Virus record (IMG/VR): IMGVR_UViG_2778261674_000013
Length of the DNA: 6,212 nucleotides
Strand: one strand, 5' to 3'
From: a virus
Taxonomy: Duplodnaviria > Heunggongvirae > Uroviricota > Caudoviricetes
Below are positions 1 through 6,212 of this stretch, piece by piece. The notes below the pieces were generated by a model, which was not told the origin of the DNA, searched no databases, and saw nothing but the letters and a program-made list of their open reading frames with translations. The translations under genes and the position numbers were made by a program. Each line of letters begins with the position of its first letter. The stretch's first letter is position 1.

Positions 1-3
1 GTG

Positions 4-24
4 GGATATTCTGAAAGAATATCC
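4..24. repeat. Perfect 9-bp inverted repeat GGATATTCT-gaa-AGAATATCC at the window edge
   Basis: Seen directly: 4-12 is the reverse complement of 16-24, with a 3-nt spacer. Function unknown (hairpin or dimeric binding site). Confidence 0.3.
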
Positions 25-252
25 ATAATGTGGAGAGAATCTATTGAAGTGCATGGTGCCGGGTGCCTCCCGGTGAATTCAGTACCAGCACCTGAATCCG
101 CGATTATCCCATATACCTACTCGCTGATTGCCCCTCCGCACAGGGGGATTCACCATGCCAGTTTCTTTTAACAAACTCCCCGCAAACCAGAGAACAGTCA
201 ACCGCCTGAATTGTGAAGTATTTAAAAATTTCTCCCGCTAACTGATACCCGG

Positions 253-339
253 CTAACAGTCTGGCGTTTTCTTTTTCAGCAACGGGAAAGCAACAACCAC
301 CACACCCGCCACCAGCACACCGTCAGCCAGCACTGACAT
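253..339 (-). CDS. Possible small hydrophobic peptide (28 aa, MSVLADGVLVAGVVVVAFPLLKKKTPDC)
   Basis: ATG at 339-337, stop at 255-253. Hydrophobic core followed by a KKK cluster, like a single-pass membrane peptide. No convincing Shine-Dalgarno; could be a chance ORF. Confidence 0.12.
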   Translation of the reverse strand: MSVLADGVLVAGVVVVAFPLLKKKTPDC

Positions 340-419
340 TATCCGGCTGCTGCAATGCCATTCACAAAAACAGTAAGCAATCACTTTTTACCGTAACAGG
401 TGATAATCCAGATATGTAT

Positions 420-773
420 CTACCCCAGATGAGTAATCCGAAGTTCATCCATACCACAGGTCCTGGCTATTCTGTTGTACTCCTGAACAAGAGCAAATAA
501 TTCTGAATTAGCAACCATGAACTCATCGCAAACCCTCTGTATAGCATCACTATTCAGAATAATAACGTCTCTTCCCGAAAGACGATCAGGAGTACAGAAC
601 AAAACTGTCAAACGGCTGAAGGCCTTTGCTCGTGCTGCATTGACTATATCAATACGCTGCCTAAGGATGAAACACCCCGACGCCTCATCAATATTCACTC
701 TACCCACACCATATGAATGATAAATATTTAATGCTGAAAAAACTATTAGACCGTATAACAAACACTCAATCAA
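420..773 (-). CDS. Hypothetical protein (up to 117 aa) in the cargo slot downstream of the phage tRNAs
   Basis: Longest ORF in this interval, same orientation as the late operon. The upstream-most start is TTG with no obvious RBS, and the first in-frame ATG is at residue 86, so the true start is uncertain. No recognisable motif. Confidence 0.3.
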   Translation of the reverse strand: MIECLLYGLIVFSALNIYHSYGVGRVNIDEASGCFILRQRIDIVNAARAKAFSRLTVLFCTPDRLSGRDVIILNSDAIQRVCDEFMVANSELFALVQEYNRIARTCGMDELRITHLG

Positions 774-883
774 TACTTAACAGAACTTTTATTTTTGACA
801 AACATATTATGTTTTCAACAATATCCTGAGCCAGGTATATTCCAGTATAAGGCTCTGCCGGAAGGAATCTGGAAGAATGAATA

Positions 884-960
884 TGGCGCGCTGTACTGGA
901 TTCGAACCAGTGACCGATTGCTTAGAAGGCAATTGCTCTGTCCGGCTGAGCTAACAACGC
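884..960 (-). tRNA. tRNA-Arg (anticodon UCU), phage-borne rare-codon tRNA
   Basis: Reverse complement folds as a 77-nt cloverleaf: acceptor GCGTTGT/ACAGCGC, D-stem GCTC/GAGC, anticodon stem ATTGC/GCAAT, loop CTTCTAA (U33, anticodon TCT, A37), T-arm ACTGG-TTCGAAT-CCAGT, discriminator G, encoded CCA. Resembles the argN/argO class of Stx-phage tRNAs. Confidence 0.85.
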
Positions 961-994
961 TGAATACCGATAATGGACCGCCATCGGGGACCCG

Positions 995-1003
995 CCCCCC
1001 CCC
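995..1003. repeat. C9 homopolymer (G9 on the transcribed minus strand) between the two tRNA genes
   Basis: Seen directly: nine consecutive C within gacccgCCCCCCCCCgcacc. Confidence 0.9.
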
Positions 1004-1064
1004 GCACCAACAACCCTGTTATCGTGTCGTCTGCTCTTCCTGATAAGCTCATGGCGGTTTGTGA

Positions 1065-1140
1065 TGGTGGCCCTTGCTGGATTTGAACCAGCGACCTGGC
1101 GATTATGAGTCGCTCGCTCTCACCACTGAGCTAAAGGACC
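1065..1140 (-). tRNA. tRNA-Ile2 (anticodon CAU, lysidine type; formally could be read as Met)
   Basis: Reverse complement GGTCCTTTAGCTCAGTGGTGAGAGCGAGCGACTCATAATCGCCAGGTCGCTGGTTCAAATCCAGCAAGGGCCACCA is a 76-nt cloverleaf with anticodon loop CTCATAA. From memory it is very close to E. coli ileX (tRNA-Ile2) and to the ileZ class of Stx-phage tRNAs. One A-C mismatch closes the anticodon stem. Confidence 0.8.
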
Positions 1141-1176
1141 GGGAGCAGAATAATAACGGTCCGTAATTAATTCCGC

Positions 1177-1203
1177 AATAAAAAACCCGCTCGGTGGCGG
1201 GTT
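1177..1203 (-). terminator. Rho-independent terminator, tR'-like (ends the short late leader transcript)
   Basis: Minus strand reads AACCCGC-CACCGA-GCGGGTT followed by TTTTTTATT. GC-rich stem plus U-tract, about 40 nt downstream of the putative late promoter. Confidence 0.6.
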
Positions 1204-1250
1204 GTAGAAACTCTTCTAACGTCAGGCATAAAACGCCCATCGTTATGACG

Positions 1251-1278
1251 AATTTACCACAGATTCCGGAAAAATCAA
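1251..1278 (-). promoter_or_regulatory. Putative Q-dependent late promoter (pR'-like) with extended -10
   Basis: Minus strand: -35 TTGATT (1278-1273), 16-nt spacer ending in TGG, -10 TAAATT (1256-1251). It lies immediately after the Q stop codon and before the terminator, matching the lambda Q-pR'-tR' layout. Confidence 0.5.
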
Positions 1279-1283
1279 CCTTG

Positions 1284-2105
1284 TTACCTAGTTACCTTTT
1301 TTAACTGCCGCTCAGCCCATGCTTCTTCAATATCAAACCGGGTCACCAGCGCATCATAGAATTTCTTAACTGTTTTTTCCCATGACGCGCGTGTTATCTG
1401 GTTTGTCACCTCGCATATAGCATTAAATGCCTCCGTTGATGGTAGTCTTTCATAGCCCCGACCACCACAACGCTGGCAGTCTCTGATAACAGGCATACCA
1501 CGTTTTACCGACTCTTCACGGTGAATGGCGACACCACGCCCACGGCAATCCTTACAGGCGGTGGAAACCTCACCCTTTCCGCCACACTCCGGACAGGCAA
1601 CTTTTACCACCTCCCTGACTTTTTTCCATTCTTCCCAGTAAGACGGATACACACCTTTCGTACACTTTGCCCATACCGGCGGCTTACCATCCGGATACTG
1701 GACCTTGTTTGTAAAAACTACGCTTTCAATAAATTTTTCCCCATAGCAACAAGGGCACTGCTTTTTACTCGCTGCGCTGCGGGCATAATCCTCAAAAGCG
1801 TACGAAGCCATAATGCGCATCACTAACGGTTTTATTTCTGCCGGAAGTTTTCTCAACGCCGCCACACGATCGCACCGACTGAGTGCATAATCTGCCAGTA
1901 ATTCTGTTGCCCGCGCCCTGTCATTCATACTGATGCCCATTTTCCCCAGGAACGCAGAAAACCCCATCTCAGCTCGATTCTGTGTCATGCCCTGCGCGGC
2001 CATCACATCAGTGATACTCAGCGCATCTTTTGACGTTGAGGCCGATGCATCGATCAGGCAAGGGGATTTTGGGGAGTAGTATTTCGGTAAATCTTCCAGT
2101 TTCAT
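1284..2105 (-). CDS. Late-gene antitermination protein Q-like (273 aa), zinc-ribbon rich
   Basis: ATG start overlaps the RusA stop (ATGA). Several Cys pairs (CPCC, CPECGG, CKDCRG, CQRCGG). N-terminus MKLEDLPKYYSPKSP and overall layout match what I recall of the Qin-type Q protein (QuuQ/YdfT family). Synteny rusA-Q-pR'-tR' supports the call. Confidence 0.7.
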   Translation of the reverse strand: MKLEDLPKYYSPKSPCLIDASASTSKDALSITDVMAAQGMTQNRAEMGFSAFLGKMGISMNDRARATELLADYALSRCDRVAALRKLPAEIKPLVMRIMASYAFEDYARSAASKKQCPCCYGEKFIESVVFTNKVQYPDGKPPVWAKCTKGVYPSYWEEWKKVREVVKVACPECGGKGEVSTACKDCRGRGVAIHREESVKRGMPVIRDCQRCGGRGYERLPSTEAFNAICEVTNQITRASWEKTVKKFYDALVTRFDIEEAWAERQLKKVTR

Positions 2106-2476
2106 TTTTTGACCTGCTCTTCATGCATTATGGGGTAAATCTTCACCCCCATACGTCCACCAGATACTGGCTGACCACGAACGATATTGATTTCATCAAA
2201 CTGCTCATCGTCCATTAACACTCCCGCATGCGTCAGCGCATCCAGCGGTGCTTTCAGGATATTGTCCAGGTCGCGACGACGCTTATCCGGTGGCTCTGCA
2301 ATCACCTTTATCGCCAGCCTTCCGGACAGGCTTAATTTCAGCCGCTGCTGGCGAACAATAAGCGCCACAGCCCGGCGATAACGCTTTCCCTCCTCCGAGA
2401 TAAAATATGTGCTGCCACGGCGTCGCCAGTAAGTGTTCACCGTCGGCGGGTAAGGTAAAACCAAATCTATGAGCAT
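2102..2476 (-). CDS. rusA: Holliday-junction resolvase RusA (crossover junction endodeoxyribonuclease), 124 aa
   Basis: Motifs LPYPPTVNTYWRRR and PDKRRRDLDNILKAPLDALTHAGVLMDDEQ match the RusA family. RBS AGAGGTGA precedes the ATG at 2476-2474. Confidence 0.85.
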   Translation of the reverse strand: MLIDLVLPYPPTVNTYWRRRGSTYFISEEGKRYRRAVALIVRQQRLKLSLSGRLAIKVIAEPPDKRRRDLDNILKAPLDALTHAGVLMDDEQFDEINIVRGQPVSGGRMGVKIYPIMHEEQVKK

Positions 2477-2488
2477 CAGTCACCTCTT

Positions 2489-3538
2489 TTACCCAAGCAC
2501 GCCAGTTGCAAAGGCGTGATCAAGAAAACGAAAGATTAAATCAACCTGAGAACCATGCTTTTCTTCGAACGCCAGAGGATCCGCATGAAGCTCGTTGTGA
2601 TGCTCCCGACACAGCGGTAGCGTGAAAATATCGTGAGATTTTGTCCCCATTCCGCCCTGACCATGACCAATCAGGTGATGGGGATCGTCGGCTGGCTTAC
2701 CACAACACGCACACGGCTGTGTCTTCACCCAGCGTGTGTATTTCTCGTTAACCCAGCGGCGACGTTTAGGTCGTTTCATGAAAGATTCCGGAGACTCAGG
2801 ATCAACGGCAATGCTGACCACCGTCTTTTCCTGTGGTGGGTTCTGTTGCTGGTGGGCGTGAGGCAGCGGCGCAAGATTTTTTGTGCGCTGTTTCAGTATG
2901 CTGGTGGCGGTCTGCTCTCCCGGTACGATGTCGCTTTCACGGTACATTGAGCGGATTTTTTCCGCACGCAACCCCAGCGAACGACGTAATACCGCTTCCG
3001 GTAGCGCGTCCGCCACCTGATTGCGGACCGCCCACCAGGATAATTCAGCCAGCGATAATTCCCGCTCCTGTGTGCCATTCATTGCGTGACGAATGACGTC
3101 AATCATCCATGCTGACAAGTTTTGGTGAGCAAGTTGCTCAAGTGATTCGGAGGTCTGGTCACGCAACTGGTTGTCGCAGTGCCAGCACAACACCATTGCG
3201 CCGGTACCATAACGGTGAATGACGGTTTCACTATGGTGATAATCGCCGTGTGGCCACTGGCAGGATTTAACATGGCGCAGTAACCAGTCAGACAATGCGC
3301 CAGCGCCACCAGCAGCACGAATCACTCGTTCGTCGCTGAAAAATGGCAGTAATGATTTATCCTCCGCCAGCGGCTGGCGAACGGCAGGAACGACCCCGGA
3401 CGGCAGATTACGCATGCTTTTCGGTTCCGGCTCCACCAGTACCCGGGTATTGTGGAATACCGGCATGGATTCACGGCCCGGCTTAACGATCACCAGCCCG
3501 AGTTCCGGTACCAGAACAGGTCGAAGTAATACCCGCAC
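2489..3538 (-). CDS. DUF968-family protein with C-terminal HNH-like Cys/His motif (YdfU-like), 349 aa
   Basis: C-terminus CACCGKPADDPHHLIGHGQGGMGTKSHDIFTLPLCREHHNELHA is typical of prophage DUF968 proteins. GTG start at 3538-3536 is preceded by GGAGGT at ideal spacing and sits one base after the upstream ORF's stop. Confidence 0.75.
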   Translation of the reverse strand: MRVLLRPVLVPELGLVIVKPGRESMPVFHNTRVLVEPEPKSMRNLPSGVVPAVRQPLAEDKSLLPFFSDERVIRAAGGAGALSDWLLRHVKSCQWPHGDYHHSETVIHRYGTGAMVLCWHCDNQLRDQTSESLEQLAHQNLSAWMIDVIRHAMNGTQERELSLAELSWWAVRNQVADALPEAVLRRSLGLRAEKIRSMYRESDIVPGEQTATSILKQRTKNLAPLPHAHQQQNPPQEKTVVSIAVDPESPESFMKRPKRRRWVNEKYTRWVKTQPCACCGKPADDPHHLIGHGQGGMGTKSHDIFTLPLCREHHNELHADPLAFEEKHGSQVDLIFRFLDHAFATGVLG

Positions 3539-3539
3539 G

Positions 3540-3818
3540 TTACCTCCAGATGCGTTGCTGGAATGTGCGGGACGGACGCGGTGGGCGTTCGGAGTAAGGA
3601 AGCCTGACGGAGATTATCCAGTGACGGTAGTCGAGGCTAAGGGCTTTTTTAACCTCGTATCCGCGCCTGCGGTAACACTGAATTATCCATTCAGCCTGCT
3701 CTTCAGTGCATGGTGGATGCTGGAACCAGTCCGATTTGAATGCATGAAAACGCCGTCCGCACCTACTGGCAAAGACGGCAGAATCATCAGAATTATGTAA
3801 TTTGGTATCGTGCGCCAT
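3540..3818 (-). CDS. Hypothetical phage protein (92 aa from the internal ATG; the ORF extends to 3929 for 129 aa)
   Basis: Open frame ends 1 nt before the DUF968 start. Neither candidate start has a strong RBS (GAGA before 3818). The N-terminal extension is W/Y/F-rich and may not be coding. Occupies the position Rem has in Qin; sequence not recognised. Confidence 0.4.
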   Translation of the reverse strand: MAHDTKLHNSDDSAVFASRCGRRFHAFKSDWFQHPPCTEEQAEWIIQCYRRRGYEVKKALSLDYRHWIISVRLPYSERPPRPSRTFQQRIWR

Positions 3819-4083
3819 CGGTTGTCTCTGCTGGCGCAGCAGGTGCCAGTTGTTCAGGCTGGCGTATAAAGTATAAATAAACTGGTTCCAGTGTAAAGCC
3901 CCTACATTAATGGAATAAAAGTCAAACAACAGATTGCTGGGATAAACACAACGCTTATTATTAAAAGCGATTAGATAAATTAAATTTTAATGTTATGCAA
4001 TTTTACCAGAACACCATAACATCTCGTTTGAAACCACCGAAACAACAACCATATCAATATTGATTATGTTAAAGTGAGTAAAT

Positions 4084-4170
4084 ATGGAAAACAACAAATC
4101 TGCACATTACGCTCCTTTTTTATCTGTGATACTTTTTGTTTTATGCTGTGTGTGGGCATTATTTTTATAA
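4084..4170 (+). CDS. Possible small hydrophobic peptide (28 aa, MENNKSAHYAPFLSVILFVLCCVWALFL), convergent with hok
   Basis: ATG with a weak GTGAG upstream. Single hydrophobic stretch. No homology known to me; may be a chance ORF in AT-rich spacer. Confidence 0.15.
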   Translation: MENNKSAHYAPFLSVILFVLCCVWALFL

Positions 4171-4179
4171 AAATATTTA

Positions 4180-4208
4180 CAGATAAAATAAACCCGCCGA
4201 AGCGGGTT
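4180..4208 (-). terminator. Rho-independent terminator downstream of hok (UUCG tetraloop hairpin)
   Basis: Minus strand reads AACCCGC-TTCG-GCGGGTT followed by TATTTTATCT. The stem is the same as in the tR'-like terminator. Confidence 0.6.
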
Positions 4209-4247
4209 AAGCGCGGGTGCGTTGAGGATGCCTGACACATCAGAGGC

Positions 4248-4269
4248 GGCGAGGGATTTCTCCCTCGCC
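4248..4269 (-). other. Perfect 9-bp stem / 4-nt loop hairpin immediately 3' of the hok stop codon (possible mRNA 3' fold-back or processing element)
   Basis: Seen directly: GGCGAGGGA-tttc-TCCCTCGCC. No U-tract follows on either strand. Confidence 0.4.
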
Positions 4270-4276
4270 AAGTCTC

Positions 4277-4432
4277 TTACTCCTCAGGTTCGTAGACTGT
4301 GAAGACAGCGACCTCCATCTGGCCGGTTCGGATTCGTACCTCGCAGAGGTCTTTCCTCGTTACCAGTGCCGTCACTATGACGGTTAAACAGATGACGATC
4401 AGGGCGATTAACATCGCCTTTTGCTGCTTCAT
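4277..4432 (-). CDS. hokD: Hok/Gef-family type I membrane toxin (51 aa), HokD/RelF-like
   Basis: Protein MKQQKAMLIALIVICLTVIVTALVTRKDLCEVRIRTGQMEVAVFTVYEPEE is near-identical to E. coli HokD (RelF) as I recall it. Strong RBS AAGGAGAA sits 7 nt before the ATG. The ORF also extends in frame to an ATG at 4489. Confidence 0.85.
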   Translation of the reverse strand: MKQQKAMLIALIVICLTVIVTALVTRKDLCEVRIRTGQMEVAVFTVYEPEE

Positions 4433-4939
4433 AGCCTGCTTCTCCTTGCCTTTCGGCACGTAAGAGGCTAACCTACATGTGCAAAGCATGAAATTGGCCT
4501 CAGATTAATGTTAAGCGTCTTGCCGGACGCGTAATGTTAACTGGGGCTTTTCTCTATCTGCCTTTGGTGTTCATGCCTGAGACAGATAGCCTCAAGCACC
4601 CGCAGCCATTGTACTTAACTCCCGTTACCTCGCCAATATAAAATCAATCAGAAAGGCGATCCATAAGGACAATAGCAAGACAATAAATTGCCATTACCCG
4701 CAATAGCCAGCGCACATTTGAGGACCAGCACGACAACTTTCTGTATCGGACGTACACCAGTCCTGATAAATACAAGGCGGTCTCATCAGTGATGAGATGC
4801 AACTATTGAGTACAGTTTCTCTGATTTTTCTGTAAAACATGGAACACAACAACTAAATATAACTAGCACTTCTTAAGATGTACAAATTCAGAGTTAAGAT
4901 AACGTAAGCAGTTTTCTCAAAACTAAGTGTAAATTTTTA

Positions 4940-5056
4940 ATGAAGAGCAGTGCTATGCTCCTGATCATAAATTCATTGTTTGGAACTGGAGGAATATTTA
5001 GGTTGCTGGAGTGGTTGGTTGAATTTAAATCAACTAAGACAAAAACCAACAATTAA
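4940..5056 (+). CDS. Possible small protein (38 aa, MKSSAMLLIINSLFGTGGIFRLLEWLVEFKSTKTKTNN) in AT-rich spacer
   Basis: Hydrophobic N-terminal half and lysine-rich tail, like a small membrane peptide. No clear RBS; AT-rich DNA generates such ORFs by chance. Confidence 0.1.
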   Translation: MKSSAMLLIINSLFGTGGIFRLLEWLVEFKSTKTKTNN

Positions 5057-5246
5057 AGATATGTGGTATATCAGAAAACAACTATCCGTATATTACTACA
5101 GAATTAAATACTAGCAACAAAGCTGTCTTTATTGATTTTTTATTTGATATCGAAACAAATAAACATAAAATAACCAACTAATTAAAACAGAGACTCGACA
5201 ATGAGCCTCTATCTATTGTAACAGCACTTCCAAATTTATTTTAGTA

Positions 5247-5266
5247 AGATAATAGCATGGGGCATA
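5247..5266. terminator. GC-rich hairpin (7-bp stem ATGGGGC/GCCCCAT, 6-nt loop) just 3' of the 266-aa ORF; possible bidirectional terminator
   Basis: Seen directly. Plus strand follows with CTTTTAAA; minus strand follows with GCTATTATCT. It stands out as a GC-rich stem in AT-rich DNA. Confidence 0.45.
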
Positions 5267-5279
5267 CTAGCCCCATCTT

Positions 5280-6080
5280 TTAAACCGTTTCATCAAGGAA
5301 ATACTTAGACGAATCATCCTGTTTCGGTTGATATGTTTTTTTTGCAGAATTAAGAACTCTTCTTAGTTCTTTTCTTAACTCAGGTAAACGCTCCTGAAGA
5401 GGGTTAGAACACCATTGTGAAGGCAACCCTCTTATAATAGCTTCGGAACAAAGCGGTGAAATAAGTTTTTCCATTTGATAATAGAAAGTTTTTGCTCGAC
5501 TTACACGCATTGTGATCCTTTTTATTACATCTCTTTCAGACTCAATTCTAGCACTCAGATCTCTTAATCTACTCCATACCTTAGCATCAGCAATATATGT
5601 ATCATAAAGCATACACTCTATAAACGTGAAATTACTAATAAGTTCTTTTGCAATATACCCCCCCAGCCGAGAAGGAATGAAACTTGATGAAGCTGTTGGA
5701 TCTCCGTGATTTACGGTGAACAAAAACCTTTTATTGCATAAATCAACGAGAACTCGATGCGTGAAAGAGTCACCTATACCAATTAACCTTAACTTTTCAG
5801 TTATTACCGAACCATCGATTTGTCTGAATCCGGGATCGCTTGCATACGAAACGATAACATTAAGAATGTACAGCCTCAATAATTGCATTTGTGTCACAGC
5901 TAAATTCGAATCAAACGGGTTCGCAATAGTCGACGTTGACTCGCTATAAGTCAACTCAGTACCCAGTAATATAGCTCTAAATGCCTCATGACGTGGAAGA
6001 AGATACCTTCCTTGTTCTCTGAAAATTTGTACTGCTTTACCTGGACTCGTATACCCTCTTTCTAAGAACTCACGAGTCAT
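5280..6080 (-). CDS. Uncharacterised protein (266 aa) in the AT-rich cargo segment; candidate accessory, defence or toxin gene
   Basis: Long ATG-initiated ORF with no internal alternative start for about 60 codons. By eye it is clearly more AT-rich than the adjacent prophage core (not computed). Protein has no motif I can assign confidently: no HExxH, no canonical Walker A, no HNH. Confidence 0.6.
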   Translation of the reverse strand: MTREFLERGYTSPGKAVQIFREQGRYLLPRHEAFRAILLGTELTYSESTSTIANPFDSNLAVTQMQLLRLYILNVIVSYASDPGFRQIDGSVITEKLRLIGIGDSFTHRVLVDLCNKRFLFTVNHGDPTASSSFIPSRLGGYIAKELISNFTFIECMLYDTYIADAKVWSRLRDLSARIESERDVIKRITMRVSRAKTFYYQMEKLISPLCSEAIIRGLPSQWCSNPLQERLPELRKELRRVLNSAKKTYQPKQDDSSKYFLDETV

Positions 6081-6101
6081 ACGTAATGCTGATGAATCCC
6101 C

Positions 6102-6125
6102 TAATGATTTTTATCAAAATCATTA
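6102..6125. promoter_or_regulatory. Perfect 10-bp inverted repeat TAATGATTTT-tatc-AAAATCATTA, 22-45 bp upstream of the 266-aa ORF start; candidate operator
   Basis: Seen directly. The AT-rich palindrome is a poor terminator stem, so a dimeric regulator site is more plausible. Confidence 0.3.
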
Positions 6126-6139
6126 AGTTAAGGTAGATA

Positions 6140-6200
6140 CACATCTTGTCATATGATCAAATGGTTTCGCGAAAAATCAATAATCAGACAACAAGATGTG
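6140..6200. repeat. Nested palindrome: 10-bp arms CACATCTTGT / ACAAGATGTG around a central TTTCGCGAAA palindrome, same centre
   Basis: Seen directly: 6140-6149 is the reverse complement of 6191-6200, and the central 10-bp palindrome at 6165-6174 shares the centre near 6169/6170. Confidence 0.4.
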
Positions 6201-6212
6201 CGAACTCGATAT

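Follow-up and report, generated by a model that had tools for sequence, protein, structure and literature searches.

A probable DS-14-family anti-phage gene truncated by IS10 beside hokD in a Qin-like lambdoid prophage

DS-14 (WP_040091717.1; working id RMOR) is among the systems reported in the DefensePredictor study of DeWeirdt et al. (Science 2026; PMC13092281), where the supplementary tables (Tables S6–S8 and S11) list it as a single-gene system, scored TRUE both for being defensive and for replication. Cloned alone in K-12 it protects, with first-screen log10 reductions, in the same material, of 4.7 for Bas50, 3.7 for Candy, and 1.1 for RB69. DS-14 is categorized there as a "remote defense homolog," with bNACHT09 at a coverage of 0.54, and its HHpred match to ORC1 (7MCA_A) spans residues 270–569. 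Here we analyze a 6,212-bp stretch of DNA (IMG/VR virus record IMGVR_UViG_2778261674_000013), referred to in full as the window, together with the gene fragment at its right-hand side. We consider it very probable that positions 4875–6088 represent the 3′-terminal part of a single-gene anti-phage cassette of the DS-14 family, cut by the insertion sequence (IS) IS10 and located in the slot between hokD and DUF977 of a Qin-like lambdoid prophage.

A DS-14-related gene truncated by IS10

An earlier note on this DNA had drawn attention to a 266-aa open reading frame (ORF) in the AT-rich right-hand segment of the window as the most likely site of an undescribed system. The ORF is present (5280–6080, minus strand), yet it proved to be the C-terminal piece of a much longer gene, in which it represents the reading frame from the first in-frame ATG of a fragment and not an independent gene. 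E. coli GF3-3 carries an uninterrupted 2,505-nt version of this gene (NZ_CP053259.1, 2220248–2222752), encoding a hypothetical protein of 834 aa (WP_112869014.1), and the protein sequence of the remnant is identical to the last 269 residues of the GF3-3 product. Strain MB06231 likewise has the gene intact. The uninterrupted GF3-3 sequence departs from the window exactly at the junction with IS10. Codons 566–834 are all of the gene that the window holds, with IS10 abutting them at 6089.

The sequence on the far side of this junction bears the terminal repeat, antisense RNA, and transposase start expected at the outside end of IS10. The terminal CTGATGAATCCCC begins at 6089, the transposase ATG lies at 6197, and the segment as a whole is 96–100% identical to annotated ISVsa5 ends in ~2,000 E. 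coli records. The earlier note expected the unit to run on past 6212; everything past 6088 in the window is IS10. An exact-protein look-up identified the window as the entire 6,212-bp draft contig NOIC01000088.1 of assembly GCA_002475595.1. Because this complete contig ends in IS10, the opposite end of which lies outside the window, the assembly must have broken inside the IS10 repeat. The left end of the window is sequence repeated among lambdoid prophages, and both ends are thus assembly breaks at repeats. The same IS10 junction is found in two Logan contigs (L026 and L028).

Insertion of IS10 at codon 566 cuts the 834-aa gene in the strain from which the window derives, and the locus is therefore most likely nonfunctional there. 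We also considered that the 266-aa remnant might be expressed from the IS10 promoter pOUT as a free winged-helix protein, acting for example as a dominant-negative or decoy for related defense proteins. Transcription of RNA-OUT from pOUT runs toward the outside end of IS10 and the remnant, the in-frame ATG (6080) lies at a distance of 9 nt from IS10, the fragment alone folds confidently in silico (predicted local distance difference test [pLDDT] score of 89), and several samples share the junction. However, inspection by eye finds no Shine-Dalgarno-like sequence before this ATG, RNA-OUT is a short, structured transcript, and clonal descent explains the shared junction. In other lineages, moreover, different kinds of lesion interrupt the gene at different positions, as would fit plain inactivation, and we regard a function for the free remnant as very unlikely.

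Several other carriers have a gene that was disrupted independently. An IS3-family element interrupts it ~27 nt upstream of the IS10 site (L025, 8742–9961), IS1A does so in strain H7 (L005, 8189–8886), a frameshift is present in strain EC42405 (L006, 7683–7688), and the DS-14 allele of strain C8 (H103) is split. Recurrent disruption could reflect a fitness cost of the gene, or it could instead reflect a tendency of AT-rich DNA to attract insertion sequences.

The intact protein allowed us to relate the remnant to a described system. By BLASTP, the 834-aa protein aligns with P0089 (E. coli, 816 aa) over 820 aa at 47% identity and 66% positives (E 0), with only 11 gap positions (1%); P0089 in turn differs by a single residue from DS-14 over the 399 positions printed for the latter (PMC13092281). 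Homology extends over the full length, and, as in the DS-14 family, an N-terminal PD-(D/E)xK nuclease and an ORC-like AAA+ nucleoside triphosphatase (NTPase) are combined in one polypeptide. The idea of an undescribed system must be given up, since a full-length homolog at 47% identity is DS-14, which that study validated experimentally (PMC13092281). The family is already known, and the gene in the window is a broken further member of it, belonging to a divergent second E. coli clade. At 47% identity DS-14 itself falls in a clade separate from the 834-aa proteins. Its locus, represented by P0089, occupies the equivalent place adjoining DUF977 in a Rac-like prophage, in the opposite orientation and in a prophage that has no hok, whereas the window copy is cut by IS10. 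None of the accessions under which the 834-aa protein is filed was found in the accessible DefensePredictor supplements (PMC13092281); a preprint surveying STAND proteins (PMC12803255) makes no mention of DS-14, bNACHT09, or HsdR, and a paper on domain-centric discovery (PMC13069673) contained nothing relevant.

The family is considerably broader than these two clades. PHROG 14719, of unknown function, matches the 834-aa protein end to end (E 7.5e-301), and a word-indexed search returned 399 homologs, most of which, among the matches listed, are ~815–860 aa long; their sources include Aeromonas, Cupriavidus, Pseudomonas, Thauera, Bordetella, Serratia, Vibrio, and Sphingobium. When 1.84 billion representatives were scanned with the window fragment, without a profile, 199 clusters were recovered, and in all full-length clusters its domain is C-terminal in proteins of roughly 795–900 aa. 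A tblastn search of 50,697 GenBank phage records gave no match. The carriers are lambdoid prophages, a Pf filamentous prophage of P. aeruginosa, and a PRTRC-type integrative and conjugative element (ICE) of Cupriavidus, while the Aeromonas copy forms a solitary chromosomal islet. Across these four settings the neighboring genes differ completely, and the homolog loci share no small upstream ORF. The partner genes anticipated in the earlier note were accordingly rejected: in its intact relatives the gene stands alone. We note that the P. aeruginosa homolog (59% identity; L009, 6875–10511) lies at the edge of the Pf prophage, where it is preceded by two same-strand genes (97 and 231 aa) that are absent from the E. 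coli loci.

Domain architecture and candidate mechanism

Residue conservation and structural matches together gave the domain order of the intact 834-aa protein: a nuclease, a linker, a P-loop NTPase, a lid, a winged helix (residues 636–704), and a helical tail of ~130 residues. The nuclease is an N-terminal HsdR-type PD-(D/E)xK domain and the NTPase an ORC/Cdc6- or STAND-like P-loop domain; of all these, the window retains only the last three, the lid being represented by its end. An AlphaFold2 model of the whole protein has a pLDDT of 81.6. Across 43 homologs, D62, E75, K77, Q109, and Y113, which constitute the D...ExK and QxxxY motifs of HsdR-type nucleases, are invariant. The same holds for the Walker A residues G306, G309, and G311-K312-T313-T314, for D438-N439-x-D441-Q442 of Walker B, and for R472, which closes the following strand. 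We take the DNxDQ form of Walker B and the strand-end arginine to be more STAND/NACHT-like than ORC-like.

The best matches to curated models, all below threshold, were NACHT (Pfam, 18.6 bits; cutoff 26.7), HSDR_N_2 (18.3; cutoff 25), AAA_16, and nSTAND5 (15; cutoff 34). Some family members match nSTAND5, NACHT, or KAP_NTPase, and E ≤ 0.001 is reached by 7 of the 43 members for NACHT and by 21 for nSTAND5. Sequence searches of the PDB returned matches at the level of Walker A only. The structural matches (scores in parentheses) were Cdc6 (16.0), ORC4 (14.0), archaeal Orc/Cdc6 (about 12–13), TnsC (12.4), ZAR1 (10.9), NLRP3 (10.3), the HsdR N-terminal fragment 3h1t_A (10.0; 146 residues, 22% identity), and BrxC (9.7), and Foldseek matched Cdc6/ORC, RdrA, and Apaf-1.

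The protein can be compared with two known groups that it resembles. It shares with bNACHT/Avs STAND proteins the module formed by a nucleotide-binding domain, a helical segment, and a winged helix. It lacks, however, their long sensor of the TPR, LRR, or WD40 type, with ~130 plain helical residues following the winged helix instead; its scores stay below threshold for every STAND model of Pfam and PADLOC, and NLRs match it less well than ORC/Cdc6 structures do. From type I HsdR it differs in having no superfamily 2 helicase motor, the place of which is taken by the AAA+/STAND-like NTPase, and no HsdM or HsdS (methyltransferase or specificity) genes lie near the gene.

Given this architecture, we propose that the NTPase module would be held off in uninfected cells. 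A phage-derived protein or DNA feature might then serve as the cue, be read through the winged-helix/tail region, and drive nucleotide-dependent assembly, which would bring the nuclease domains together, so that DNA would be cut and phage replication halted. The nuclease would serve as effector, the NTPase with the lid and winged helix as switch, and the tail as candidate sensor. Since the motifs are STAND-like but the best structures are those of ORC/Cdc6, we retain two variants of this scheme, NLR-like sensing of a protein and direct sensing of DNA. The present analysis establishes the identity of the cassette, the IS10 break, the domain architecture, the conservation of the catalytic residues, and the homology to DS-14; the defensive activity of DS-14 comes from the literature, and the trigger, oligomerization, nuclease substrate, and survival of the cell are elements that we infer.

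One possible, if doubtful, alternative to an NLR-like sensor is an ATP-dependent restriction-like enzyme. Its ORC/Cdc6-like AAA+ module, along with the winged helix, would contact phage DNA directly (modified or replicating DNA, for instance), and its HsdR-type domain would cleave that DNA while the cell survives. The resemblance of the DNxDQ Walker B to the DGxDE of NACHT proteins and the position of the invariant arginine at the end of strand β-4 argue against such an enzyme. So do the matches of family members to nSTAND5, NACHT, or KAP_NTPase and the lack of a methyltransferase or other self-protection partner, as does the HHpred link between DS-14 and bNACHT09 in the supplementary data (PMC13092281).

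Several observations weigh against assigning the intact gene to DS-14-like defense. No curated model in Pfam, NCBIfam, or PADLOC v2 recognizes the 834-aa protein at threshold, and its C-terminal region is short and without repeats, unlike typical Avs/NLR sensors. The slot in which it resides also holds non-defense cargo (QueH, a hydrolase, and an MFS transporter), and position alone therefore proves nothing. At 47% identity, the phage range or trigger of the 834-aa clade may differ from that of DS-14, a system that the main text, in the portion available, does not discuss (PMC13092281). Finally, the window contains neither the second IS10 junction nor the gene's 5′ two thirds, which is why we infer its loss of function there instead of seeing it. 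We nonetheless maintain the interpretation of the fragment as part of a DS-14-family anti-phage cassette as the very probable one.

The slot beside hokD

The cargo segment is set apart by its composition. Its GC content is 0.354 over 4875–6088 against 0.484 over 1–4874; no 1,214-bp window within 1–4874 falls below 0.437, so the drop far exceeds the variation of the window itself. In sliding windows, GC content is ~0.46–0.59 at 900–3900 and 4200–4800 and 0.30–0.40 from 4800 to the end, and GC at third codon positions (GC3) is 0.288 in the 266-aa ORF compared with 0.485–0.552 in the Q, rusA, and DUF968 genes. The shift near 4800 that had been judged by eye is thus real. Its description required two adjustments: the block to the left is GC-balanced for the most part, with an AT-rich dip at 3900–4200 (GC 0.30), and the AT-rich cargo, placed at 4800–6212, extends over 4875–6088, the last 124 bases (6089–6212) being the end of IS10.

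The boundary of the cargo was also located by alignment. When the whole window was compared by Megablast with 5,426 complete E. coli genomes, the prophage backbone was found in thousands of records, nearly all matches ended at 4874, and only strain GF3-3 continued beyond this position, matching window 1–6096 at 99.7% identity. Relative to other Qin-like prophages, shared backbone sequence gives out at 4853–4882 (L001, 16853/16882). Pairwise blastn delimited an exchangeable block of ~3.5 kb with a GC content of 0.353 (L001, 16854/16883–20409), the start of which corresponds to window positions 4854–4882. The cargo gene is followed by a putative terminator, a consensus match only, with a 7-bp stem containing 5 GC pairs and a weak T-run (Table 1).

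In the same set of complete genomes, the intact gene or a close allele occurs in 8 of 5,426. Five of these eight carrier loci were inspected, and in all five the gene lies between hokD and DUF977, in lambdoid prophages that differ in their Q, repressor, and replication modules. Other strains carry different cargo at this position: AbiH and a 463-aa protein in A19 (AbiH by PADLOC, E 1.7e-27), a 752-aa NACHT protein in LR-60, two proteins matching the DS-33 pair exactly or almost exactly in ExPEC XM, relE-relB-ydfV-flxA in the K-12 type, an alpha/beta hydrolase in O145:H28, QueH in EC958, and an MFS/GGCT/LysR block in DS26-1. The LR-60 protein is unrelated to the 834-aa protein beyond Walker A, and kinship between the two was rejected because only this region aligns. 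The ExPEC XM pair (L020, 6751–8730) consists of WP_014639476.1 and a near-identical copy of WP_000354965.1, and PADLOC v2 does not recognize it; the pair WP_014639476.1/WP_000354965.1 was validated as DS-33 in the DefensePredictor study (PMC13092281). The earlier note had raised the possibility of a variable cassette between hok and the replication genes, in a region known to house phage-exclusion genes. The exchange of cargo across prophages bears out the first point, and AbiH, the NACHT protein, and DS-33 bear out the second. The hokD-DUF977 interval is a moron slot enriched for, but not exclusive to, defense genes.

The position of the gene, directly adjoining DUF977 and replisome-organizer genes, and its best fold matches, which are replication initiators, could be taken to indicate a replication or recombination function for the prophage, with an ORC-like initiator fused to a nuclease and no role in defense. 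A gene with such a role would not be expected in 8 of 5,426 genomes when the backbone occurs in thousands, nor to be freely replaced by unrelated cargo, and its presence in a Pf inovirus prophage, an ICE, and a chromosomal islet places it outside lambdoid phages. Rarity, free replacement, and this wider distribution make a replication role unlikely; adding that DS-14 protects when cloned alone in K-12 (PMC13092281), we assign it a very low probability. Membership in the DS-14 defense family remains our preferred interpretation.

The GF3-3 locus shows the slot in its uninterrupted context. There, the annotation gives a Qin-like lambdoid prophage with the order tRNAs, Q antiterminator, RusA, DUF968, a 92-aa gene, hokD, and the 2,505-nt gene, followed by DUF977, a replisome organizer, YdaT, and repressors. 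In the window, the hok/sok locus is complete. That Qin carries relBE beside hokD holds for K-12, and the window, as had been noted from its reading frames, has no relB or relE frame adjoining hokD; in tblastn searches with K-12 RelB/RelE even the best alignment to the window lacked significance (E 1.1 over 7 aa), and a relBE module at this locus was rejected on that basis. Both arrangements share the prophage backbone, hokD, and cargo on the same side of hokD. They differ in that relBE replaces the mok/sok leader in K-12, whereas the window has a complete hok/sok and cargo from ~4875. K-12-type homology in the window is limited to 4190–4446. The K-12 arrangement is the derived one, because homology ends at 4446 and relBE occupies the place of the mok/sok leader.

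Table 1 Features at the cargo end of the window and its junction with IS10
Feature	Coordinates	Strand	Basis
hokD toxin coding sequence; conserved left neighbor of the slot, not cargo	4277..4432	-	RefSeq annotation of the 99.7%-identical GF3-3 locus; ORF list
sok antisense RNA / hok leader	4427..4601	-	Rfam RF01794, 115.7 bits, E 1.2e-26
AT-rich (GC 0.31) non-coding 3′ end of the cargo cassette	4875..5279	-	Megablast, pairwise blastn, GC
Terminator-like hairpin, 4 bases past the stop codon of the cargo gene	5257..5276	-	Consensus scan
3′ remnant (codons 566–834 plus stop) of the 834-aa DS-14-like nuclease-NTPase gene; codes for the end of the lid, the winged helix, and the C-terminal helical bundle; first ATG yields the 266-aa ORF	5280..6088	-	
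IS10 outside end (ISVsa5 in RefSeq naming); terminal CTGATGAATCCCC	6089..6212	+	IS-end identity, sequence reading
IS10 RNA-OUT antisense RNA	6134..6203	-	Rfam RF00240, 98.8 bits, E 1.9e-20

Other features of the backbone lie further to the left. The second AT-rich dip, at 3900–4200, has no annotated gene and falls within a small variable spot (3820–4276) between the 92-aa gene and hokD; K-12 has rem there, EC42405 has a Doc-family toxin with a small gene, and part of the sequence is kept in a Rac-like prophage without hok (L007, 7412–7770). Two prophage tRNA genes are found downstream of Q on the minus strand (884–960 and 1065–1140), comprising a tRNA-Arg(TCT) and a tRNA with a CAT anticodon, which ARAGORN calls Met and RefSeq calls Ile. 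The latter annotation would presumably fit a lysidine-modified tRNA-Ile2. At the left end, positions 1–187 (minus strand) match the small RNA family STnc100 in Rfam (108.9 bits), the match being cut by the contig end.

Implications for the DS-14 family and the slot

Because the gene in the window is a broken remnant, the biology of the window itself is modest, and what novelty remains concerns how DS-14-family proteins work and the standing of the slot as a hotspot. For the former, the conserved residues provide a residue-level map for mutagenesis, comprising D62/E75/K77, K312, D438/D441, R472, and the winged helix (636–704). Its repeated natural inactivation hints at a fitness cost of the gene. 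For the latter, a jump in composition beside hok is a reliable sign of an exchangeable cargo slot in lambdoid prophages. This slot holds at least four defense systems (AbiH, the NACHT protein, DS-33, and the DS-14 relative) and is therefore a practical place to seek more.

A more far-reaching proposal, which we put forward as a speculative one and rather unlikely in its entirety, is that the 834-aa clade constitutes a functionally distinct DS-14 subtype. Its ORC/Cdc6-like module and winged helix would read a feature of phage nucleic acid instead of a phage protein and license the HsdR-type nuclease; the slot would be an unrecognized lambdoid defense hotspot, and the IS and frameshift hits would represent a cost of autoimmunity. 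If this were true, it would amount to a form of restriction, ATP-gated and independent of modification, that has yet to be described, and the hokD-DUF977 slot would be worth mining.

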